From: a phage
Reading direction: 5' to 3' (one strand)
Sequence record: PZ583738.1
Length of the DNA: 64,000 bases
Shown: positions 5,573 through 37,655 of the stretch, piece after piece
Position numbering within the stretch: position 1 is the first letter of the stretch
Layout: each line of letters starts with the position of its first letter
The notes under the pieces: model-generated
The model's input: the letters and a program-made list of their open reading frames with translations, nothing else
What the model was told of the DNA's origin: nothing
Database searches by the model: none
Position numbers and translations under genes: made by a program

Positions 5573-7383
5573 TAAGCAATCCTTACCCAGCGATGAGCAA
5601 TCAAATATGGAGGCATTGTATAAACCGGTTGAGCTTGAGGGTCTTGCGCCTGATTAATAGTGGCTTTGTCTTCTCTGTATTTGGTATAGGCTGGACCTTG
5701 TGCATCTGGGTCTACCTGACAACCGCCGACAACAATCGGACCATTATCATCAACAACCAAAAATTTCTCATCGGTTTCAAGTTTAGGTACGTTTATATCT
5801 TTAATATGAACTTCAACACTACCACCTGTGCCACCCGCCGTCGCTTGTGGGTTACCACCAGAATCCAGGTCATTATTGTTTGTATGGAAGTTTGAGGCAG
5901 GGTCGTCCGACCAGGCAACAATTACACGTTCTTTCAAACGTTTCCATGAACCAAACCCCATATAAGTAACCGGGTTATTCGGGTTAACCGTATTTTCGTA
6001 AATTGTACCAACCGGATAGAATAATTCAAAGATAGCGCCAACAGAAGATGGAACAACTTCCTGAAGACCGACTGGTTCAACGTTTGGTGCAAACGGATTA
6101 TCAAAATCTGTAATACGTACACGACCGGTTAAGCTCAATGTATTTCCCTGAGAAACATAAAGAGTGTCAGTCTCATCACGGATTTCATCCATGGTCATAG
6201 TTGTGCCGATATCGTTATTGTACCAAATGACCGACAGAATATCACCATCTTCAAATTCACGATAAATGCTAATACCTTCGATGCGGTTGTCATCATCAAA
6301 TTGCAGCAAATAATCCTGGGTTGATTCAGACCAACTGCCACCATTTGCGCTACATTCTGCCGCAGTGGAACCTTGCGCACCTTCGCAATAAAATACTGGA
6401 GTTCCTGCAGTCCCGGCTTGGTGTTGTAAAATACTGTTAATGAATACCTGACATGCATTTGGGTTAATTGGGCTACCCGGAGAGATACCAAGTTCTTCAA
6501 TTGTAAAGGTGTGTTTGGATGTCAAATCTGTAACAATCAAAGAACCATTAATTGTTGTTTCTTTGGTCCTGTCCTGACTACGAACAAGTACATCACGACG
6601 ATTATACGAACTACGCCATTGAGCAATACCATCATTAAATGTTCGGATGATAACAGTATCACCTTCAGCACATGGCATTTTCAGACGGATGCTTTTACCA
6701 TCAAGCGCAACGATTTCACCAGGGTTTGCACCAGGGGAACCAAATTCAGCATTCACCGGGTCGAAAATATCATCTTTACCATAAAACAGGTCGTTACCAC
6801 GATGTTTGACTTCTAAGTTCGATACGCTATACGGAATAGCACCAAACACATTGATAAAGTCAGTTTGTCCTTCGGTAGCAATAAACTGTTGGGATGCAAC
6901 TGTAGCAACGTCGTTATTTGAAATTTTATCGACTTGTTTATTATCGATATATTCCCAACGACCTGGTGAACAATATACAAGTTCAAGGTCAGCTAAGTTG
7001 CGTTTAATTTCTACTGGATTTGGTGAGCCTTTAATCGTATCCCCGACTGCAGGAACAATTGTCACCGGGTTGATTTGCCAGGTAGCAAACACGTCACGCA
7101 AGCGAATTACATAATTGTATTCTTGAGTTGTTCCTTTCGGGAGGACGACTCGAACAGCACCGGCTGATGTATCGATGGTATAGCTTCGACCCATAACAGC
7201 AGACAACTCGGTGCCTTCTTGTGTAGTCCAAGTTTTCCATGCACCAGCCGCATGAGGATTTTCACCGTCACCCAGCTGATAATAAAGGTCGTCAAAGTTA
7301 TTGTTTATTTTTTGACCGCCGAGACGAAGGTAATCACCAGTACCATCATCAACCATATTGCCAATTTTTAAATTCTGTTTCAT
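5572..7383 (-). CDS. 10: baseplate wedge protein gp10
   Basis: 603 aa; N-terminus MKQNLKIGNMVDDGTGDYLR..NFDDLYYQLGDG closely resembles T4 gp10 (about 602 aa). Confidence 0.9.
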   Translation of the reverse strand: MKQNLKIGNMVDDGTGDYLRLGGQKINNNFDDLYYQLGDGENPHAAGAWKTWTTQEGTELSAVMGRSYTIDTSAGAVRVVLPKGTTQEYNYVIRLRDVFATWQINPVTIVPAVGDTIKGSPNPVEIKRNLADLELVYCSPGRWEYIDNKQVDKISNNDVATVASQQFIATEGQTDFINVFGAIPYSVSNLEVKHRGNDLFYGKDDIFDPVNAEFGSPGANPGEIVALDGKSIRLKMPCAEGDTVIIRTFNDGIAQWRSSYNRRDVLVRSQDRTKETTINGSLIVTDLTSKHTFTIEELGISPGSPINPNACQVFINSILQHQAGTAGTPVFYCEGAQGSTAAECSANGGSWSESTQDYLLQFDDDNRIEGISIYREFEDGDILSVIWYNNDIGTTMTMDEIRDETDTLYVSQGNTLSLTGRVRITDFDNPFAPNVEPVGLQEVVPSSVGAIFELFYPVGTIYENTVNPNNPVTYMGFGSWKRLKERVIVAWSDDPASNFHTNNNDLDSGGNPQATAGGTGGSVEVHIKDINVPKLETDEKFLVVDDNGPIVVGGCQVDPDAQGPAYTKYREDKATINQAQDPQAQPVYTMPPYLIAHRWVRIA

Positions 7384-28696: not shown

Positions 28697-29140
28697 ATGA
28701 AAACTTCAAAACTGGTTAAGTACGTTAAACTGGCATTAAACAACTCTTCTGAAGCTGAAGCACAATCCGCAGCACGTATGTTCTTCAAACGTCTGACAGC
28801 TGAAGGTATTTCATTTAACCCGGCAGTATTTGGTATCACTCGTGGCGAAGCTGCTAAACTGGCAACTCTGGCAGGTAAAATTTTTAAAGGTCTGAATGAT
28901 GAGCAGGTTAAACCAGAAGTTAAACCTACTCCTAAAGCTGAACCAAAAGCTGAACGTAAGGCACCTAAACGCTCCGGTATGAGCAACAAAGATTTGTGCT
29001 ATGATATGTTCAAAACTGTTAATATGTCTAATGGTGCTGCTCGCAGAGCTGTTATTGATATGATTGTGCGTGAGTTTGGATTCAACAAAGCATCAGTTCA
29101 GTCTTATGCTTCCAACTTCCGCAAAGAATTTGAAATTTAA
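28697..29140 (+). CDS. hypothetical protein, paralog B of a shared C-terminal-domain pair
   Basis: 147 aa; lysine/proline-rich linker then C-terminal domain (NKDLCYDMF..AARRAVIDMIV..VQSYASNFRK) homologous to ORF 27819-28244. Confidence 0.55.
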   Translation: MKTSKLVKYVKLALNNSSEAEAQSAARMFFKRLTAEGISFNPAVFGITRGEAAKLATLAGKIFKGLNDEQVKPEVKPTPKAEPKAERKAPKRSGMSNKDLCYDMFKTVNMSNGAARRAVIDMIVREFGFNKASVQSYASNFRKEFEI

Positions 29141-29146
29141 TTCAAA

Positions 29147-29180
29147 GGGGGTATACAAGCCCCCTGCTTTAAGGCATAAT
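29147..29180 (+). promoter_or_regulatory. GC hairpin overlapping an early promoter
   Basis: GGGGG-TATACAAG-CCCCC hairpin; -35 GTATAC inside loop, -10 CATAAT 18 nt later. Confidence 0.4.
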
Positions 29181-29246
29181 GATTCCATACTGAGTTACAC
29201 AATAAAACATTGGATAATAAAATATTAACCAACTGAAGGAAATACC

Positions 29247-29840
29247 ATGAATACTTTAAAGAAACTTGTTGAATTCATCCGCTCCAAACTGGGTACTGCA
29301 ATGGCACAAAACCTGTCTATTGAAGACCAATATACTAAAGCTGCTTCTACCCTGATTGACAAGATTACTGAGCTCCAGACTGCCCATGTTAAGTCTGTTA
29401 ATGAAGAAAAACGCATCCGCGAGTTAGCGAATGAAAAAGACCAGCTCGCTTCTTCTAAAGAACGCGAAATTCGTAAACTGATTGCTGATGGTGCTGATGT
29501 CCAGGTCCATGCTAAACTGGGTCTCCTGTATCGTCGCACTGCTAAACAACTTCGTAAGAAGGCAGATGATTATGTTGAAATGCGTAATGAAATTAAATTG
29601 AAAGTTAAAGAGCTGGATGACTCTCGTCAGGAACTAGCTGTTAAACTGGAATACATCCGCGAAACCCGTAAGGTGTCTGCACTGGGTATTGCAACCGCAG
29701 ATGATGTTGTTGAAATCGCTGCATTGACTAAGATTGATATTGAAGACACCCTGATGCGTGTTGAAACCTTCAAAGGCCCACAGGTTGGTGTGGATACCAC
29801 GTCCGCTGACATTGAAGAATACATCAATTCACTTAAGTAA
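29247..29840 (+). CDS. coiled-coil protein of unknown function
   Basis: 197 aa; heptad-rich, highly charged; ATG with SD AAGGAA. Confidence 0.5.
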
Positions 29841-29883
29841 GATAAAAGGGGGCTTTGCCCCCTAATTGGGAGAGGAGAATATT

Positions 29884-30438
29884 ATGAGCTTATATACTGA
29901 CCTTATATCAAATGTAGACTGGTTTAGTGGTAGTGGTCTTGCCACTGAAACTAACACGGTTCTTTACAGAATTCGCCAAGACCTGGGTTATTCCAATGAT
30001 TTCTTAAGAAGAACGACAAGTCGCGGCGATACTACCAAATTGCCTTTTATTTTTGCTTTAGCTGAAGACCTTTCTTTTGCAGATGCCTTGGAAATTATTG
30101 ATGTAAATCTGGGTATTCAACGAGTGGAATTCGGTGGACTACGTTATTCAGTATATGCGTTAAATGACCCAGATGATTATAGGCAACTTATTAATGCGGA
30201 CGATGGTGACCATTTGGTGTGTTATTTGATGTTGGAAAATGGTGACCACTTTGGAATGGTTGACCGCCGACCAACTTATACTGATATTAAAAATTATGAT
30301 AAAGATGAGCTTCTTGATTTGGCGGCTGAGTACACATTAGAGAGTCGTAAACGGAAACGTAAGCTTAATCGTTTTATTGCTGAATGTCGTGAATATGCTA
30401 AAGGGGTTCAAAATGCGAACGCTATATCTGCCAAGTAA
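29884..30438 (+). CDS. hypothetical protein
   Basis: 184 aa from ATG 29884 with SD GAGAGGAG; C-terminus NRFIAECREYAKG shares junction motif with three other genes. Confidence 0.5.
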   Translation: MSLYTDLISNVDWFSGSGLATETNTVLYRIRQDLGYSNDFLRRTTSRGDTTKLPFIFALAEDLSFADALEIIDVNLGIQRVEFGGLRYSVYALNDPDDYRQLINADDGDHLVCYLMLENGDHFGMVDRRPTYTDIKNYDKDELLDLAAEYTLESRKRKRKLNRFIAECREYAKGVQNANAISAK

Positions 30439-30772
30439 ACCAGAAAAATTTGTGTACGCAGACAAGATTGATAAAGACCTTATGCCTCCATTTGGAGCTT
30501 TGTCCATGTGCATCGTTGGGGTTATAATGATGGTGCTTTGTGGGGATATGAATATCATTAGTGTTGGAGTCGCCTGGTCACTAATAATTGCAGCACCTTT
30601 TATTACAGTCCTGAGCATGATATTGATAAACGTGTGGCATCAAAATCATATGAATAAAGGATATCGTGGGCGAGTTAAAGAGTGGGAACAAAAATGTGTT
30701 TCCCTGCAAGAAGAGCACAAAATTAAATGTGCCGAAGAATTTATTAAGGAGGTTCGTAATGGAACGGCCTAG
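30413..30772 (+). CDS. small membrane protein
   Basis: 119 aa from ATG 30413; two hydrophobic helices; C-terminus EEFIKEVRNG. Confidence 0.45.
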   Translation: MRTLYLPSKPEKFVYADKIDKDLMPPFGALSMCIVGVIMMVLCGDMNIISVGVAWSLIIAAPFITVLSMILINVWHQNHMNKGYRGRVKEWEQKCVSLQEEHKIKCAEEFIKEVRNGTA

Positions 30773-31112
30773 TCTTGCATCACATGTTTATCAATTGGCT
30801 GAATATGATATTGGTGCCAGTTTATTATTAGGGATTGTCACCGCCATGCTTGGCGGTTTGGTTGGTCTGGTAATGACCACGGTTATGGCTGCAATCGAGG
30901 GAGTCATGCCTATTGATATGGGCTTCTTTATGATAATTGCTCCGGCTGTTGTGGCTTATTTTATCCCTGTTGTGTATGATATCTGTCACACAAACGCCTT
31001 GAATGCTCCTAGTCGGAAGAGATATGCTTCAGCAATGGCTGAGTATAATAAGTTCCTAGACAAAACAAAACGTAATGACCTTGAAACCTTTATTAAGGAA
31101 TGTAAATCATGA
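30759..31112 (+). CDS. small membrane protein
   Basis: 117 aa from ATG 30759 with SD AAGGAGG; multiple hydrophobic segments; C-terminus ETFIKECKS. Confidence 0.45.
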   Translation: MERPSLASHVYQLAEYDIGASLLLGIVTAMLGGLVGLVMTTVMAAIEGVMPIDMGFFMIIAPAVVAYFIPVVYDICHTNALNAPSRKRYASAMAEYNKFLDKTKRNDLETFIKECKS

Positions 31113-31399
31113 ATAAAATTGAAATTGCTATCCCCAAGTATTATGATGAAAAATCTGCAGAAAAAGCTATCTATTCTCTTCTAAATAAGACCTCTGAAAT
31201 TGAAAAACACTGCGAAGAAATCGCAGATGAATACGGTATCCAATTCGGTACCGGTGATTATGGTTCAGGCCGTACATATTATCCTGTCGGTTATGAATGC
31301 TCCAAGTGGTTTAAAGATGAAATTGAAAACAACGGCGGCGAAGTTGAAAACGGTGTCGTTACAGTTGGTGCTTGGGTCTCCTCTTCGGCAATGTGCTAA
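31109..31399 (+). CDS. WVSSSxxC-terminus family protein 1
   Basis: 96 aa; ends AWVSSSAMC; first of four tandem paralogs. Confidence 0.55.
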   Translation: MNKIEIAIPKYYDEKSAEKAIYSLLNKTSEIEKHCEEIADEYGIQFGTGDYGSGRTYYPVGYECSKWFKDEIENNGGEVENGVVTVGAWVSSSAMC

Positions 31400-31408
31400 G
31401 GAAACTCT

Positions 31409-31690
31409 ATGATGAATGATTACCGTAAAAATAAAGAACTGGCTAACGCAGTAAATGACATCCATAAAGCTATTCGTCGTGCCGAGGAAATTGCAAACAA
31501 ATATGAGACTCATTTTAATATATACCCTGCTCGCGGTATGGGCGGTGACTATTATTCTCCTGGCGCCCTGAAAGCCGACCTTGCTCATTGGGAAGAACAT
31601 GGCCATCCTGAATGGGCTATTGTTAATACTCATGACTATACAACTGACCTGGAAAAAGGCGGTTGGGTGTCCTCCTCTTCTGAATGTTAA
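31409..31690 (+). CDS. WVSSSxxC-terminus family protein 2
   Basis: 93 aa; ends GWVSSSSEC; shares EEIAxxY..F..G..YYxPG region with protein 1. Confidence 0.55.
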   Translation: MMNDYRKNKELANAVNDIHKAIRRAEEIANKYETHFNIYPARGMGGDYYSPGALKADLAHWEEHGHPEWAIVNTHDYTTDLEKGGWVSSSSEC

Positions 31691-31698
31691 GGAATGTT

Positions 31699-31896
31699 AT
31701 GTCTCGTGAATTAGATTGTGCAATCCGTACTGCTGCGGCAGCTATTGAAAACGTTATCCAGATTTGCAAAGAAGAACGCGAAGAAGCTGATATCTATATC
31801 GATGGTGTTCGTGACCTAGAACGACATATCACGCTTTATAATGGTTGTATTACAATTAGTGGTACCTCTTGGGTGTCCTCCTCTTACGAATGCTAA
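31699..31896 (+). CDS. WVSSSxxC-terminus family protein 3
   Basis: 65 aa from ATG 31699 (SD TAAGGAA as in paralogs); ends SWVSSSYEC. Confidence 0.5.
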   Translation: MSRELDCAIRTAAAAIENVIQICKEEREEADIYIDGVRDLERHITLYNGCITISGTSWVSSSYEC

Positions 31897-31905
31897 GGAA
31901 TAAAA

Positions 31906-32130
31906 ATGTCTGATATTAATGAATTAGAAAAAGCAGCACTTGAACTGGCTGCATTGTATAAGAAAGTAAAAGATATGGCTAACGCTCAAGATTTCGGTAT
32001 TGAGCTTGACGAATATGATGGTGAGGTTCGTCTCGAAGACTGGTTGTACAGCTCTTGCTATGGCGAAGACGCTGGTCGCACCTTTGTTGCTCAACCTGAC
32101 GGTAAAATCTGGCACCCGAGTAGCTGCTAA
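31906..32130 (+). CDS. WVSSSxxC-terminus family protein 4 (divergent)
   Basis: 74 aa; ends KIWHPSSC; same junction architecture. Confidence 0.45.
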   Translation: MSDINELEKAALELAALYKKVKDMANAQDFGIELDEYDGEVRLEDWLYSSCYGEDAGRTFVAQPDGKIWHPSSC

Positions 32131-32175
32131 AATTATCACAAGGATGTGATAGGAGGACTTATGTGCAGAAATTTA

Positions 32176-32205
32176 GTGTACAAGCCTAAAGAAACGTAGT
32201 ATCAT
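32176..32205 (+). promoter_or_regulatory. early promoter (PeSL-like cassette)
   Basis: -35 GTGTAC, 18-nt spacer, -10 TATCAT; palindrome ATCACA..TGTGAT just upstream. Confidence 0.45.
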
Positions 32206-32233
32206 TATCTCGTCAACTAATGAGGAAAATATT

Positions 32234-32401
32234 ATGTATAATGTTCTTATTGTTTTTGTCACTCACCCGCAAGGTGGAGTAAGACAGAATACTTCTCAAG
32301 TGGTTCAATTTTCTTCACTAGAGGCCGCCAATCTTGCTGCCTCACGAATTGAAGCGAAAAAATCGGCACTTGGAAAATATGAAGTAACTCGTCTTTACTA
32401 A
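32234..32401 (+). CDS. hypothetical small protein
   Basis: 55 aa; ATG preceded by AATGAGGAAAATATT, a leader also found before ORFs 32415 and 34087. Confidence 0.35.
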   Translation: MYNVLIVFVTHPQGGVRQNTSQVVQFSSLEAANLAASRIEAKKSALGKYEVTRLY

Positions 32402-32414
32402 TGAGGAAAATATT

Positions 32415-33380
32415 ATGATGTTAGTTATTGGTTCTCGTGCATTACATAACGCTGGTCTGATTGAAAGTCAGAAAATTGAAAACTCTGATTGGGACTTTAT
32501 CGCTGACCAAGGCTCCTGGAACCACTTTAAAGCACGTATGTTCGGTGCTCATGTTCCTGTGGATAACCCTAACGTCCAAGCTTTTAAATGTATGTACAAT
32601 GGCAAAGAAACCTATTTTGAAGCTTATATTGTCCGTGCCCTGACCAACGTACGAGAAATTACTGGTGAGCTTCAAGACGAAGATTTCACCTCAAGTTATC
32701 GTCTCCTGAAATATGCTGAAAATCATATTAAAAAAGATCGTCTTACAGGTTTTTACTGGGCAACTCCTGATATTTGTCTGGCAATTAAATTATCTCATCG
32801 TTACCTGAAGAACAATCCATTCTTCCTGAAGACCATGAGTCATATTAATTACCTTCGCAATAAGGGTATTGTTCTTAATGATGAACTGCAGAAAATCATG
32901 CTGCAGCGTCAGGCAGAGACACTGTCATACAGTCACCCTAAACTAGACGTGGGCAAGAAAACTTTCTTTAATGATACAATCTATACCCTTGACCATGACT
33001 CCATCCACGAGGCCGTGGCGCTTGCTGATAAGCCTGCATATAAGTTCTATATGAAGGATGATTCAGAAGTCATGACCTCGCGTGAAAAATTTGAAGCACT
33101 CCCTGATGTTATTAAACTGGCAGGGGTTTATGAAGAAGCATGTGTGCTCGCTCTGGAGCGTTCGCAGGTTCCTAATGAGTTCAATATCTCTCCATCCGTG
33201 AGCTTCCATATTGCGCTGGAAAAAGTCTGCACCTCCATTACGTCTGGATGGTTTCGCACCTTCGCATATGAAAATTACGGCAAAATTATAAGTATGTATA
33301 ATGCTTTAGGTCATGACGATTATATTAAACGTTTTAAGGCTAACCAGCATTTAATTAAACCATTCAAAAAGGATGAATGA
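32415..33380 (+). CDS. hypothetical protein with possible nucleotidyltransferase-like N-terminal motif
   Basis: 321 aa; VIGSRALHNAG..ENSDWDF loosely fits hG[GS]x(n)[DE]h[DE]h; otherwise unrecognised. Confidence 0.5.
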   Translation: MMLVIGSRALHNAGLIESQKIENSDWDFIADQGSWNHFKARMFGAHVPVDNPNVQAFKCMYNGKETYFEAYIVRALTNVREITGELQDEDFTSSYRLLKYAENHIKKDRLTGFYWATPDICLAIKLSHRYLKNNPFFLKTMSHINYLRNKGIVLNDELQKIMLQRQAETLSYSHPKLDVGKKTFFNDTIYTLDHDSIHEAVALADKPAYKFYMKDDSEVMTSREKFEALPDVIKLAGVYEEACVLALERSQVPNEFNISPSVSFHIALEKVCTSITSGWFRTFAYENYGKIISMYNALGHDDYIKRFKANQHLIKPFKKDE

Positions 33381-34027
33381 TGGGAAGACCATTAGAAGAT
33401 TTGACTGGTAAAATTATTAATGGAATCAAATTTGTTTCGGTAGCATATAAAACCGCTGGAGTTTCTACTAAATGGAATTGTATTTGTCATTGTGGTAAAG
33501 AGTTTGTCACAGCCGCCGCTCGTATAAAATCAGGTAAAACCAAATCATGCGGCTGTCAGAAATATCATTATTCATTTATTTCTGACAAACCTACGTATTC
33601 ATCGTATGCTGCCATGATTGAAAGGTGTACAAATCCTAACCATCATCGTTGGAAGCAGTATGGTGGCGCTGGTGTACAAATATGTGATAGGTGGCTACCA
33701 AAGGGAAAAACTGGTTATTTGAATTTTGTTGAAGATATGGGTATTCGTCCAGCAGGTACAAGCATTAATCGGATAAATTCATGTAAGCTATACAGTAAAG
33801 AAACTTGCGAATGGGCTTCATCATCAATACAGTCATTTGACCAGGATACCCGAAAAGATTCACCTGGTCCAATTACAGGTGTCAAGTTTAGAAAAGACAG
33901 AGGTAAATGGATATCATATATTACTGTTAATCATAAAGAAATCCAACTTTACTATGGTGATTCTCGCGACGAAGCAATAGAAAGACGACGCACCGCTGAA
34001 TTGAAATATTATAATAGACAAAAATAA
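33377..34027 (+). CDS. AP2-domain endonuclease-like protein (homing endonuclease-associated family)
   Basis: 216 aa; YSSYAAMIERCTNPNHHRWKQYGGAGVQICDRW and MGIRPAGTSINRINS..CEWAS pattern, then C-terminal AP2-like segment ITGVKFRKDRGKWISYI..LYYGDSRDEAIERR. Confidence 0.45.
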   Translation: MMGRPLEDLTGKIINGIKFVSVAYKTAGVSTKWNCICHCGKEFVTAAARIKSGKTKSCGCQKYHYSFISDKPTYSSYAAMIERCTNPNHHRWKQYGGAGVQICDRWLPKGKTGYLNFVEDMGIRPAGTSINRINSCKLYSKETCEWASSSIQSFDQDTRKDSPGPITGVKFRKDRGKWISYITVNHKEIQLYYGDSRDEAIERRRTAELKYYNRQK

Positions 34028-34029
34028 TT

Positions 34030-34067
34030 GTGTACATCCAAGTGGGACTATGACACAATGGTCCCAC
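34030..34067 (+). promoter_or_regulatory. early promoter with stem-loop (PeSL-like cassette)
   Basis: -35 GTGTAC; inverted repeat GTGGGAC..GTCCCAC flanking the -10 region. Confidence 0.5.
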
Positions 34068-34086
34068 AATCAATGAGGAAAATATT

Positions 34087-34773
34087 ATGAACGGTCCGAA
34101 AACTTTTAATTCTAAAGCTCGTGCAGTAGGCGGATTTGCAGGTCATATTTCTAATGATGATATTAAAAACGAGCCTATGTTCTTTAACTGTGATTTGAAT
34201 TTTGCTGCACAAAATGGCGGTCCTATTACTCGTAGCTTTATTACTAATCTCCCTGATGAGTGGAAAGCCGTTGAATGTGTATTCGATTCTCGGGTTCATA
34301 TGTTGATGCCTGGTTGGTATCCTGCTATCCCAGGTTATCACCATGATGATGTGCCACGCCCGGATATTCCGGTTGGTCAACACTTTATTACTGCAGGGCA
34401 ACCTGATTATGATAATCCTCGTTACCATTCTGAACATATTCTTGGTCTTGTTAACGCTGATGTGTGTCCTACTTATTTTGCAACCGGAACTGCGCAATTT
34501 AGTCAGATTCCTGAAGGCGAACTTATCTATCGCCAGTGGCATAAAGAAGTTCTGGAAAAAATTGAGTCCAATGAATTAACCAAGTGGGATGCTCCTGACC
34601 GCACGTTGCTCCAGTTTGATTGGCAGACATGGCATACAGGTTCTCGCGCAGTAAGTAATGGTTGGCGCTGGTTTGGTCGTGTGTCTCGTAATACCGACCG
34701 TGTTAAAAAGATTACAAATGAAATCCGTGTTAATGCTCAAGTATATCTGGAATTCCCTATGGAGGGATGGTAA
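34087..34773 (+). CDS. hypothetical protein
   Basis: 228 aa; SD GAGGAAAA; no motif recognised. Confidence 0.55.
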   Translation: MNGPKTFNSKARAVGGFAGHISNDDIKNEPMFFNCDLNFAAQNGGPITRSFITNLPDEWKAVECVFDSRVHMLMPGWYPAIPGYHHDDVPRPDIPVGQHFITAGQPDYDNPRYHSEHILGLVNADVCPTYFATGTAQFSQIPEGELIYRQWHKEVLEKIESNELTKWDAPDRTLLQFDWQTWHTGSRAVSNGWRWFGRVSRNTDRVKKITNEIRVNAQVYLEFPMEGW

Positions 34774-35357
34774 TGCTGTATGAACCCGGTTGTATGGGTG
34801 TTGATGTAAACTTCATCCGCCGGGCAGAAAATGCAGGTATAATTGTATCAAGAGACGAATTTATGATTACCAAAAAATATTGGGCGAACCTTGATGATGG
34901 TGATGAAGGAATCAAGGTGGAAAATGTTGATTGGTCGCGATGCAATCGTCATGTGAAAGAGCTTTTAATTAAGGAATATAAAATGGGATACATCATTAAT
35001 GGGCATCAACCAGAACCACTCAAAGAACAGACACCCGACCCATTAATTTCTTATAGCAAGAAATATGGATTTCGTACCTGGAGTGATGAATTTGATAAAT
35101 TAATTTGTTCCAGGTTTTATGCCTGGGCTGGAATCTTATTTTTACCATTCCTGTGGTTTTTCCTGACAGGTAAAAATGAAGCACCTGTAGCTGTAATGGG
35201 CGCGTGCTTTTCTACTGCTCTTGCTGGACTTATTGCATCATTTTTATGGACTATGGTTATTGAAGTACCTTTTCGTATTTCTAAAGTTAAAAAGGTGTAC
35301 GACGATATCACTAAGAAAAATACATTGAACTCTTTTATTGAGGAATGCCGTAAATGA
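34773..35357 (+). CDS. hypothetical protein with C-terminal membrane segment
   Basis: 194 aa from ATG 34773 (TAATG overlap, SD GGAGGG); hydrophobic stretch near C-terminus; ends NSFIEECRK. Confidence 0.5.
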   Translation: MLYEPGCMGVDVNFIRRAENAGIIVSRDEFMITKKYWANLDDGDEGIKVENVDWSRCNRHVKELLIKEYKMGYIINGHQPEPLKEQTPDPLISYSKKYGFRTWSDEFDKLICSRFYAWAGILFLPFLWFFLTGKNEAPVAVMGACFSTALAGLIASFLWTMVIEVPFRISKVKKVYDDITKKNTLNSFIEECRK

Positions 35358-35590
35358 GTATTGCGATTTATATTAAATCTGAGTCATGTGATTCTTATCT
35401 GTATTCCTATGATACAGGCACATCAGAAGAGAAAATCAAAGAAGATTTAGAAAGTGATTTGGATATGTTCCGACCGATTTCTGAATACAGAATTCAAACT
35501 TCTGATAGTGAAAGCCCTTCATTGGAAAATAGACTTGAATTTTTAATGAGTGATATTTTTAACCAATCATGGAAACGTGACGATGAGTAA
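35354..35590 (+). CDS. hypothetical acidic small protein
   Basis: 78 aa; ATGA overlap with upstream gene. Confidence 0.45.
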   Translation: MSIAIYIKSESCDSYLYSYDTGTSEEKIKEDLESDLDMFRPISEYRIQTSDSESPSLENRLEFLMSDIFNQSWKRDDE

Positions 35591-36041
35591 GAAAAACAAG
35601 GTGAAAGAATTATCGGCTGGCATTATTTTCATGACTGAAGATAAAGAGTTATTCATGGGTCGTGTGACCGGTTCTCGTAAACCAGGTATGCCAGCACACA
35701 AATGGGACATCCCTAAGGGTCATGTGGAAGCTGGTGAATCCCCAATTGAAGCGGCTATTCGTGAAACCGAAGAAGAAACTGGGTTTACCCAATACGACCC
35801 GGCATTCTTAAAAGACCTCGGTGAGTTCCGTTATTCAGATAACAAAAACCTTCACCTGTTTTTGTATACGGTTCCTGTCGAGCATGAGCAATTCAGACAC
35901 AGTAAATGCTCTGCCTATCATACCTTCCCGGATGGCAGTTCGGTCCCAGAGTTTGATGCATTTGCTCTGATTAAACCGAGCCAATGGCAGTACGTGATGG
36001 GCAAATCGATGTACAAGGTAATGACTCAAATTTTCGGATAA
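35583..36041 (+). CDS. nudE: Nudix hydrolase (NudE-like)
   Basis: 152 aa from ATG 35583; Nudix box GHVEAGESPIEAAIRETEEETGF; directly upstream of lysozyme e as in T4 (e.1). Confidence 0.8.
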   Translation: MSKKNKVKELSAGIIFMTEDKELFMGRVTGSRKPGMPAHKWDIPKGHVEAGESPIEAAIRETEEETGFTQYDPAFLKDLGEFRYSDNKNLHLFLYTVPVEHEQFRHSKCSAYHTFPDGSSVPEFDAFALIKPSQWQYVMGKSMYKVMTQIFG

Positions 36042-36067
36042 TAAATACTCCTATATAAGGGGGTATT

Positions 36068-36562
36068 ATGAATATATTCGAAATGTTACGCATAGATGAA
36101 GGTTGTAAGTTGGATTTGTATAAAGATACTGAAGGCTATTGGACCATTGGTATCGGGCAACTGATAACTAAGAACCCATCAAAAGATGTTGCTCGTGCTG
36201 AGCTCGACAAGCTCATGGGTCGCGTCTGCAATGGTCGCATAACCCAACACGAAGCTGAAACATTGTTTAATCGTTCGGTCGAAAAAGCTAAAGCTGGAAT
36301 CTTGAGACATCCTGTCTTAAAACCTGTTTATGATGTACTGGATGAAGTTCGTCGCTGTGCACTCATTAATATGGTATTCCAGATGGGTGTTGCTGGGGTA
36401 GCTGGTTTTCCTAAGGGTATGCGACTTCTGAAGGCTAAATCATGGGAAGCTGCTGCTAAGGAACTAGCTGACTCAAGATGGTATAAAGTCCAGACTCCGA
36501 ATAGGGCAAAACGAGTTATCGAAACTTTCCGTACTGGAACTTTTGACGCATACAAAAGGTAA
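36068..36562 (+). CDS. e: endolysin (T4 lysozyme, muramidase)
   Basis: 164 aa; [57 protein letters not shown] closely matches T4 lysozyme incl. catalytic E11/D20/T26 positions. Confidence 0.95.
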
Positions 36563-36565
36563 AAT

Positions 36566-36835
36566 ATGAAAACGTATCAAGAATTTTTGGCTGAATCTGT
36601 ATTAAATGAATCAGATGAAAGCCGCATGGCATTTTTAGCTAAGAAAGAAGGCTTTGAGTTTACTTCTATTAAAAAAGTTAATGGAACTTCATTTAAAGTT
36701 GGTGATTGGACCTTTGGTAACAAAGGAAGTGGCCAGTGGCAAATTGTAGATAAATCTGGTAAAGAAGTGGATTATTTGTTTAATCAGAAATTGGGTGATA
36801 TCGCTAAACTTATGGGTCAATACTCTAAGAAATGA
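36566..36835 (+). CDS. internal-protein-like small protein (CTS N-terminus)
   Basis: 89 aa; N-terminus MKTYQEFLAES; adjacent to e as ipIII/ipII are in T4. Confidence 0.6.
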   Translation: MKTYQEFLAESVLNESDESRMAFLAKKEGFEFTSIKKVNGTSFKVGDWTFGNKGSGQWQIVDKSGKEVDYLFNQKLGDIAKLMGQYSKK

Positions 36836-36872
36836 TGTACATCTCCAAATGATAGGGTTATAATGACCCTAT
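36835..36872 (+). promoter_or_regulatory. early promoter with stem-loop (PeSL-like cassette)
   Basis: -35 ATGTAC, 18-nt spacer, -10 TATAAT, inverted repeat ATAGGGT..ACCCTAT around the -10. Confidence 0.5.
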
Positions 36873-36890
36873 CAACTACGGAGAACAAAC

Positions 36891-37307
36891 ATGACACGTA
36901 TTAACTTAACCCTGGTATCTGAACTTGCTGACCAACACCTTATGGCTGAATATCGTGAGCTTCCTCGCGTGTTTGGTGCGGTTCGCAAACATGTACAAAA
37001 TGGTAAAAAGGTTTCTGACTTTAAAATCCCATCATCTTTTCTTTTAGGGACTGGTCATGTCACCTTCTTTTATGATAAACTTTTGTTCCTTAAAAACCGC
37101 CATCAAGAACTTATTGCGGAATGTTTAAAGCGAGGGTTTAACATAAAAGATATTTCTACCCAAGATTTAAATGATATTCCTGATGAATGGAAGAATGATT
37201 ATCAACCATCAATCTGGTCAATTGAAATCAGTCAAGCCAGACTGAATGAGAAAATTTCTCAAAAGCCTACCTGGTACAAATACTATGGGAAAGCAGTGTA
37301 CGCTTAA
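36891..37307 (+). CDS. denV: endonuclease V (pyrimidine dimer DNA glycosylase)
   Basis: 138 aa; [44 protein letters not shown] nearly identical to T4 endonuclease V. Confidence 0.95.
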
Positions 37308-37355
37308 CTAAAAAGGTTGTATACTGATTTTATCAACCAAACAATAGAATATAAA

Positions 37356-37655
37356 ATGTTAACTTATAAAGAATTTATCACAGAAGCTAAAGCTCCTAAA
37401 GCATTTCAAATCGGAGTCCAAGGTAATTTAGACCAACAATATGTTGATGCTATTGTAGCAAGCCTCGGTAAACAGGGCGTGCAAGTGGATTCGGTTGATT
37501 TTACTAAAGGCAATACTTTTAATATTGTTACATCTAAAGGTTCTTTAGCTAAAGTTAAAAAGGCCTTTGGCGTAGCACAAGCATATGAAATTGACCATTC
37601 TGAATTAGAAAATAAAGGTCGCCAGAACACAATTAAAGGTTCTGGTTCTTTCTAA
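37356..37655 (+). CDS. internal-protein-like small protein (CTS-like N-terminus)
   Basis: 99 aa from ATG 37356; N-terminus MLTYKEFITEA; early promoter (-35 GTGTAC 37296, -10 TATACT) upstream. Confidence 0.55.
   Translation: MLTYKEFITEAKAPKAFQIGVQGNLDQQYVDAIVASLGKQGVQVDSVDFTKGNTFNIVTSKGSLAKVKKAFGVAQAYEIDHSELENKGRQNTIKGSGSF

Follow-up and report, generated by a model that had tools for sequence, protein, structure and literature searches.

Why do four genes of one phage end in almost the same few residues, and is it the DNA or the peptide that recurs there? The question is raised by a T4-like phage of the Gaprivervirus type, of which a stretch of 64,000 nucleotides (sequence record PZ583738.1, hereafter the window) was analysed. 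The open reading frames (ORFs) ending at positions 30438, 30772, 31112 and 35357 carry the peptides NRFIAECR, EEFIKEVRNG, ETFIKECKS and NSFIEECRK, respectively, at or near their C-termini. A sequence-only reading had regarded the four ORFs as unrelated and the DNA beneath the peptides, said to contain the Shine–Dalgarno (SD) sequence and start of the next gene, as a possible portable junction carried along when modules are exchanged. On re-reading the sequence, the four ORF ends and the four peptides were found as it had described them. The explanation favoured here, to which a probability of about 0.75 is given, is that the recurring DNA codes for a conserved C-terminal peptide (the tail) of the T-even early gene cluster e.5/e.4/e.3/e.2, and that the SD and start codon of the next gene are embedded in this DNA. 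The tail has the form hydrophobic-x-x-F-(I/V)-x-(E)-C-(R/K), with the core [FW]-I/V-x-x-C-R, and its carriers are co-oriented, overlapping early genes, i.e., e.5, e.4, e.3 and e.2, together with a fifth gene in Mosigvirus.

The shared gene ends of the e.5–e.2 block

When all six reading frames of the window are searched, F[IV].E[CV][RK] has four matches, all of them in these genes, at 1, 1, 4 and 15 residues from the stop codon. The peptides of e.4, e.3 and e.2 are terminal; NRFIAECR, which had also been taken for a terminus, is followed by 15 further residues (EYAKGVQNANAISAK). Within the last 22 residues of the 58 long ORFs, the tail pattern occurs in three; the expectation from shuffling the residues is 0.0035, and none of 2000 shuffles gave more than 1. 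At the level of DNA, the pattern TTYATTRMKGARKK, which was derived from the sites themselves, has 4 matches against 0.25 expected. Neither the rest of the window nor a further 50 kb of phage VR26 showed another copy of the tail, in a scan that covered about 94 of the roughly 171 kb of the closest genome type. The tail is a real and statistically solid feature.

At three of the four sites (e.4, e.3 and e.2) the next gene does have its SD and start in or just after the motif, as had been claimed; at the e.5 site it does not. The DNA consensus quoted for all junctions fits exactly at the e.3 junction alone. After the e.5 motif, e.4 has its conserved start at ATG 30413, preceded by the SD AAAGGGG at 30400–30406; the alternative ATG at 30395 occurs only in the window and a few close relatives, and most of the relatives compared have TAC there. 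The genes overlap by 26 nt at e.5/e.4 and by 14 nt at e.4/e.3, and at the ends of e.3 and e.2 the stop and the next start are joined as ATGA. Most of the DNA identity among the copies is due to biased codon usage (in the window, TTT 65%, ATT 60%, GAA 81% and TGT 70%), which explains why the peptide is written nearly always as TTT ATT nnn GAA TGT.

The four ORFs are syntenic homologues of T4 e.5, e.4, e.3 and e.2, as identified from annotated relatives, T4 itself and PHROG profiles. The segment 29800–35700 is 91% identical to VR26, and tblastn and blastp also match T4 e.2, e.3 and e.4. In T4 the same genes (PHROGs 2203, 2330, 2604 and 8788) stand in the same order between e.6 on one side and nudE and e on the other, and this position is kept in the gene-order maps of the window and of 25 related loci from Gaprivervirus, Dhakavirus, Mosigvirus, Tequatrovirus and Kanagawavirus, which form the comparison set. 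In contrast to T4, the present phage has ten genes (~3.6 kb) between e.3 and e.2 and a 78-amino-acid ORF between e.2 and nudE, and the body of its e.5-position gene is very diverged from T4 e.5. This last gene and the T4-type e.5 give a weak colinear profile match (hhalign, 69% over 147 columns), whose matching block includes YSVYALN against WSVCYLN (shared pattern (W/Y)S(V/I)...(L/F)N), and the two are read as putative diverged orthologues, not as a replacement. An unrelated gene that had replaced e.5 and yet kept the tail was also considered, and is weakened by this 147-column match and block. Pfam and NCBIfam hold no family for any of the four proteins, and a word-indexed protein search with them returned close relatives only.

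That the four ORFs are unrelated holds for part of the set. The products of e.2, e.3 and e.4 are all two-helix membrane proteins, in which two transmembrane (TM)-like segments with a loop of 5–13 residues are followed by 37–47 K/R-rich residues ending in the tail (TM windows at residues 26–44 and 54–72 in e.4, and 22–40 and 54–72 in e.3). In e.2 the segments are preceded by a soluble N-terminal domain, and the e.5-position protein has no TM-like window. Moreover, e.3 and e.4 are probable tandem paralogues, with moderate support: their profiles match in hhalign (90% over 44 columns, 78% over 89 columns), a blastp comparison of the two (e.4 as query) aligns 84 amino acids at E=0.005, the PHROG cross-matches are colinear (e.4 sequence in the e.3 PHROG, E=0.003), and the N-termini are similar (M-x-K/R-P-x-L). 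Between e.3 and e.2, the profile match (84%) lies over the tail and covers 19 columns only, besides weak colinear matches (PHROG E=0.0027, blastp E=0.002); e.4 and e.2 show no match in profile comparison, and e.5 aligns with e.4, e.3 and e.2 at the tail alone (last 10–20 residues). The sharing of the tail by e.5 and e.2 with e.3 and e.4 may go back to an old duplication, to an unequal crossover of the type of the JS98 fusion described below, or to convergence.

Peptide and DNA across the Tevenvirinae

When the motif was searched for at the gene junctions of related genomes, as the sequence-only reading had proposed, it was found in the 25 loci from five genera, so that the outcome which was to refute that reading did not occur, and corresponding genes carry the same tail peptide throughout. 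In T4, e.5 reads ...KFVKECREYVKAITIPSK (FVKECREY...), e.4 ...KFVKESRCKSQS (FVKESRCKSQS) and e.3 ...EFVIDCRKIK, and e.2 of phage fPS-90 ends in ...NFITECRKLK. In Mosigvirus, e.3 ends in ...NFIKECRK and e.2 in ...RFITECRNLR, and an extra gene of 101 amino acids with two TM segments also ends in the tail (...NFIKECRGK). The tails of Kanagawavirus read ...DFVDQCRA..., ...LFIKNVRRK and ...KFVKGCRNGRN.

The codons at the fixed residues vary: F is written TTT or TTC, I/V as ATT, ATC, GTT or GTG, C as TGT or TGC, Arg as CGT, CGC, CGA, AGA or AGG, Lys as AAA, and the Glu/Asp site as GAA, GAG or GAT. The SD moves as well. In the window it occupies the x-E codons (AAG GAA, GAG GAA); T4 e.3 and the e.2 of fPS-90, Mosigvirus and ST0 have it in the C-R-K/N codons (TGC AGG AAA). 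In e.5, and in the extra Mosigvirus gene with its AAA at x, it follows the motif. Since the residues are kept while the codons vary and the SD moves, selection therefore acts on the amino acids.

The bodies of the proteins have diverged far. The e.4 of the window is 33–36% identical to that of T4 and Mosigvirus, and its e.3 is only 19–30% identical to the T4-type and Mosigvirus e.3, but the F and C of the tail are invariant there. By tblastn, e.3 has matches in 219 phage records and e.2 in 673. A HMMER scan with e.2 over 1.84 billion representative proteins gave 11 relatives, and all 8 aligned full-length ones end in [FW]-I-x-x-C-R-(K/N). In an alignment of the window e.2 with eight representatives of clusters at 50% identity, nine sequences in all, nothing beyond the N-terminal domain is invariant except the I, C and R of the tail, which follow an aromatic residue (F or W); the distant representatives retain W..DD..G..W..C plus the tail.

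Two records bear on single members of the block. In an IMG/VR Mosigvirus-like contig of 121 kb (L023, positions 5960–6090), e.3 has a large internal deletion; the remnant consists of the first codons and the last ~28 codons, and the tail ...NFIKECRK and the ATGA junction are intact. In T4 (NC_000866, 67491–67960, locus L003, between e.2 and nudE), the annotated e.2 of 102 amino acids is a truncated reading, and the remainder, including ...NNFITECRK, can be read downstream after frame changes (FITECRK is out of frame); in a second T4 record, the tblastn match of e.2 falls in two pieces. Thus read, e.2 appears to be broken in T4 itself. The positions of the genes, motif copies and repeats in the window are collected in Table 1.

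Table 1. Genes, copies of the tail motif and repeats flanking e.4, in window coordinates.
Feature	Position	Strand	Remarks
e.6	29247..29840		upstream neighbour of the e.5-e.4-e.3-e.2 block
e.5-position gene	29884..30438	+	184 amino acids, soluble; phrog_8788, E=4e-111; after e.6 as in T4
e.4 homologue	30413..30772	+	119 amino acids, two TM segments; phrog_2604, E=2e-45
e.3 homologue	30759..31112	+	117 amino acids, two TM segments; phrog_2330, E=1e-45; stop overlaps next start (ATGA)
e.2 homologue	34767..35357	+	196 amino acids (164 from ATG 34863); phrog_2203, E=4e-65
nudE, e, denV	35590 onward		downstream neighbours of the e.2 block
Motif copy 1	30373..30390	+	TTT ATT GCT GAA TGT CGT = FIAECR; internal, no SD inside; DNA TTTATTGCTGAATGT
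Motif copy 2	30740..30757	+	TTT ATT AAG GAG GTT CGT = FIKEVR; holds e.3 SD AAGGAGGT (30746-30753), ATG 30759
Motif copy 3	31089..31106	+	TTT ATT AAG GAA TGT AAA = FIKECK; SD AAGGA (31095-31099), next ATG 31109 (ATGA)
Motif copy 4	35334..35351	+	TTT ATT GAG GAA TGC CGT = FIEECR; SD GAGGA (35340-35344), next ATG 35354 (ATGA overlap)
Left e.4 repeat	30399..30415	+	TAAAGGGGTTCAAAATG; SD and e.4 ATG 30413; 13/17 identical to 30745-30761
Right e.4 repeat	30745..30761	+	TAAGGAGGTTCGTAATG; SD and e.3 ATG 30759; overlaps the e.4 tail

The e.5-e.4-e.3 run begins right after a GC-rich stem-loop, AGGGGGCTTTGCCCCCT (29845–29863), which directly follows e.6. At this position after e.6, T4 has GGGGCTTCGGCCCC, and the annotation of fPS-90 places a terminator there.

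Possible gene exchange at the junctions and competing readings

The gene-order maps give the backbone as e.6, e.5, e.4 (where present), e.3, an insert, e.2, the 78-amino-acid ORF (where present) and nudE. The tail is always on the same upstream families (e.5, e.4, e.3, e.2 and the 101-amino-acid Mosigvirus gene). After e.5 comes e.4 or e.3; e.3 is followed by e.2 in Tequatrovirus and, almost everywhere else, by the first WVSSS-family gene of the ~3.6-kb insert; and after e.2 comes nudE in Tequatrovirus and Kanagawavirus and the 78-amino-acid ORF elsewhere. Because the upstream family is constant and the downstream neighbour varies, the tail is therefore the gene's own C-terminus and not a mobile cassette. 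What survives of the portable junction is that e.4 is present or absent as an exact ATG-to-ATG unit between repeats.

It could still be argued that a block of ~20 nt, made of the tail codons, SD and ATG, recurs because it is a homology patch for module exchange, and the variation by genus of the neighbours 3′ of e.3, e.2 and e.5 fits this. Dhakavirus phages (JS98, VR5, WG01 and others) lack e.4 exactly from its ATG to the e.3 ATG, and in the genomes that bear it e.4 lies between TAAAG(G/A)GGTTCAAAATG and TAAGGAGGTTCGTAATG. These flanking repeats, imperfect and 17 nt long, are reduced to a single copy in Dhakavirus, where the fused junction of JS98 reads ...AAAGAGGTTCAAAATG joined to GAACGGCC... 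and locus L017 has the other (CGT) repeat variant; as e.4 is present in Tequatrovirus, Mosigvirus and Gaprivervirus, its loss in Dhakavirus is the simpler reading and would explain the difference. Similarly, a 55-amino-acid gene (32234..32401) lies between two identical 21-nt copies of a non-coding SD+ATG repeat, ACTAATGAGGAAAATATTATG. It is present in VR7, VR26, VR20 and JS98 and absent in VR5, WG01 and several IMG/VR contigs, and the relatives without it have a single repeat copy before the 321-amino-acid ORF, whatever lies upstream. For the PeSL (promoter-early stem-loop) cassettes, by which modules are shuffled in T4-type phages, Arbiol et al. mapped the crossovers to the segment that runs from the -10 element to the SD or ATG (PMC2839356), which was also counted in favour of a portable junction. 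Against all this, the gene family upstream of the tail is constant in the 25 loci, and the amino acids of the tail persist through many synonymous and multi-step codon changes. Nor is the FIxEC core the site of the e.4 crossover, the left repeat lying 9 nt downstream of the e.5 motif; the e.3–e.2 insert has no second copy at its right boundary, and copies of 14–23 nt with 74–83% identity are short for homologous recombination. The SD+ATG blocks coincide with single-gene indels, the FIxEC core itself is not the exchange point, and a homology patch as the cause of the recurrence is considered unlikely.

The three other readings are less probable still. The tail might be a C-terminal mimic of the capsid targeting sequence (CTS) and of the cleavage site of gp21, (hydrophobic)-x-x-F-I-x-E being comparable with Y-Q-E-F-I-x-E of MKTYQEFIAE, the leader of T-even internal proteins and the N-terminus of T4 IPIII. 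Four genes of the window do start with M(K/L)TY(Q/K)EF(I/L)xE, and L/I-x-E with Glu at P1 is seen in the window tails as I-A-E, I-K-E and I-E-E. It has been reported that gp21 cleaves after L/I-x-E, that CTS residues 4 and 7 serve targeting and residues 8 and 10 processing, and that gp21 and Alt are also processed C-terminally (PMC9026906). However, the motif here is C-terminal and not within the N-terminal ten residues; three of the four carriers are membrane proteins with two TM segments, and cleavage would remove just 2–4 residues. The common pattern is four residues only, and T4 e.3 has Asp at the Glu position, where Asp blocks CTS processing (PMC9026906). In Kanagawavirus the CTS keeps its E, whereas the tails have Q, N or G, and several e.2 relatives have G or M; after this comparison the CTS/gp21 reading was downgraded, and it is now held to be very improbable. 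A reading with slightly less in its favour is that the peptide has no meaning, and that the need for an SD in frame (an AU-rich stretch plus AAGGA) forces ends of the type F-I-K-E. AAG GAA and GAG GAA do encode K-E and E-E, the rarer Lys codon AAG (27%) is used wherever the SD sits at x, and the neighbouring tandem genes ending in WVSSSxEC and the stop also end just before TAAGGAA. Yet the best-conserved residues, F, C and R/K, are encoded outside the SD, and the peptide is kept where the SD sits in the C-R-K codons or wholly downstream (e.5, and the extra Mosigvirus gene with AAA at x). Among the 58 long ORFs of the window no others carry the motif at their ends, though overlapping starts are common, and such forced convergence hardly seems credible. 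The least probable is that the junctions hold a conserved RNA structure or a regulatory site acting in RNA. RegB cuts at sites with the core GGAG, and this tetranucleotide occurs at the e.4/e.3 junction. The remaining three lack it; when a 91-nt segment at each junction was folded, the z-scores were +1.15, +0.05, -0.71 and -0.99, and Rfam gives no credible match in 28000–37500. This reading is disfavoured almost entirely.

The window has several other features of note. Genes with a CTS leader start at 23967, 24279, 36566 and 37356 on the + strand; all are small, and two of them flank the e–denV segment. At 31109–32130 there are four tandem small genes (96, 93, ~65 and 74 amino acids; phrog_899) ending in WVSSSxxC or WHPSSC and the stop, then TAAGGAA and the next start. 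A family of 33-nt repeats (70–91% identity) covers these ends, so that the tandem is a second recurrent junction encoding a conserved C-terminus, with four or five copies in relatives. A non-coding block of SD, spacer and ATG, (A/T)CTAATGAGGAAAATATTATG, stands before four genes (32216–32236, 32397–32417 and 34069–34089, with a variant at 29872–29886); two of these copies are the identical pair around the 55-amino-acid gene. Between the 321- and 228-amino-acid ORFs lies a 216-amino-acid ORF (33377–34027), annotated in VR26 as a restriction or HNH-type endonuclease. Of the relatives, only VR7, VR26 and one IMG/VR contig have it, and the place is taken by a different gene or by nothing in other genera, which suggests a mobile endonuclease gene. 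Upstream of e.6, the paralogous genes 27819–28244 (141 amino acids) and 28697–29140 (147 amino acids) share near their 3′ ends a 100% identical stretch of 31 nt (28203–28233 and 29096–29126, encoding VQSYASNFRK) and a further stretch of 41 nt at 73% identity, which may reflect recent gene conversion.

A possible role of the tail and its known counterparts

According to the favoured explanation, the repetition of the DNA has three causes: purifying selection keeps the peptide, the AT-rich genome writes it nearly always as TTT ATT nnn GAA TGT, and the free position x (AAG/GAG), or else the C-R-K codons (TGC AGG AAA), houses the SD of the next gene. With the next ATG overlapping or closely following the stop, translational coupling and matched expression would result; the overlap of stop and start with the SD in the last codons is the arrangement expected for such coupling. 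The tails end a predicted helix in all four proteins and are helical, at low confidence, in the AlphaFold2 models. On a helical wheel (100 degrees per residue), positions -3 (L/I/M), 0 (F), +1 (I/V) and +4 (C) fall within an arc of 100 degrees. From the positive-inside rule (the K/R-rich region after the TM segments), the tail is predicted to be cytoplasmic, where it may form an amphipathic docking or assembly helix that brings e.5, e.4, e.3 and e.2 to a common partner or to each other. A bolder version, offered tentatively, is that the tail would be an address label: four or five otherwise unlike early proteins, one of them soluble and the others inner-membrane hairpins, would dock through this helix with its invariant Cys-Arg on one partner, or bundle in a membrane complex, and the block of 20–25 nt would at the same time be a promoter-less linker for the loss or gain of single genes, as with e.4.

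Several points weigh against the favoured explanation or loosen it. The motif is less strict than was first written, as e.4-type tails have V, S or I in place of Cys, and for Glu, Kanagawavirus and some of the e.2 relatives have Q, N, G or M. The F and I codons of the window copies are all TTT and ATT, for which codon usage alone gives a probability of ~0.02, and this leaves room for a constraint on DNA or RNA. Outside the tail, profile comparisons detect no homology between e.2 or e.5 and e.3 or e.4, the AlphaFold2 confidence (pLDDT) is low with shallow alignments (38 for the e.5-like protein, 51 for e.3), and the docking or assembly role of the helix is something that we only infer.

In the papers searched, no description of a tail shared by e.2–e.5 was found, nor any mention of these genes. 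The tail is kept from T4 to Kanagawavirus while the proteins diverge to 20–30% identity, which marks e.2–e.5, hitherto without an assigned function, as one functional module, and it offers a precise experimental handle on them. It is also a caution: in an AT-rich phage, a conserved peptide, together with codon bias and an SD that lies within its codons, can account fully for a repeated junction sequence.

Among known systems, the PeSL cassettes resemble the junctions here in being short, conserved and placed at the gene boundaries of hyperplastic regions (PMC2839356, PMC4122927); their 3′ end includes the SD and start codon, and single ORFs are inserted or lost between their repeats, to which e.4 and the 55-amino-acid gene may be compared. 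The junctions of the window differ in lacking a sigma-70 promoter and a stem-loop, in lying inside overlapping coding sequences and in that the conserved part is a peptide. In particular, three junctions have no sigma-70-like promoter and one has a 9-of-12 match at 31081–31110 (promoter-like matches in the region number 29, against a shuffle expectation of 27.1 +/- 5.4); no terminator-like site is found at any of the four, and all four copies are within coding sequence and not intergenic. Repeat-bounded indels at the junctions come to one case (e.4, whose SD+ATG repeats overlap its tail), the large e.3–e.2 insert not being bounded by a pair. With no promoter, no stem-loop and no intergenic position, a PeSL identity of the junctions is rejected; the exact ATG-to-ATG indels are small, promoter-less additions to PeSL-type shuffling in hyperplastic regions. 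Further upstream, a 57-nt intergenic repeat in three copies (68–84% identity; 28275–28331, 28644–28700 and 29170–29226) consists of a -10-like TATAAT/CATAAT, a conserved leader (CCATACTGAGTTAC...) and a start codon, and stands before three genes up to e.6; these repeats may be PeSL-like early-promoter cassettes.

The CTS and the tail are both short terminal peptides on otherwise dissimilar proteins of the same genome region, both contain F-I-x-E, and both form a conserved block at a gene boundary. The CTS, in contrast, is N-terminal, belongs to soluble packaged proteins and is cut by gp21 after an invariant Glu, whereas the tail stands at the C-terminus of proteins that are mostly membrane proteins, and its Glu varies. 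Coupled overlapping genes in general (ATGA and the like) likewise have the SD in the upstream coding sequence and a stop overlapping the start, but that arrangement alone yields no conserved peptide, whereas here the peptide is conserved and the SD moves within it. In summary, the tail falls under known headings, namely short linear motifs, partial tandem paralogy and coding sequences that overlap a ribosome-binding site.

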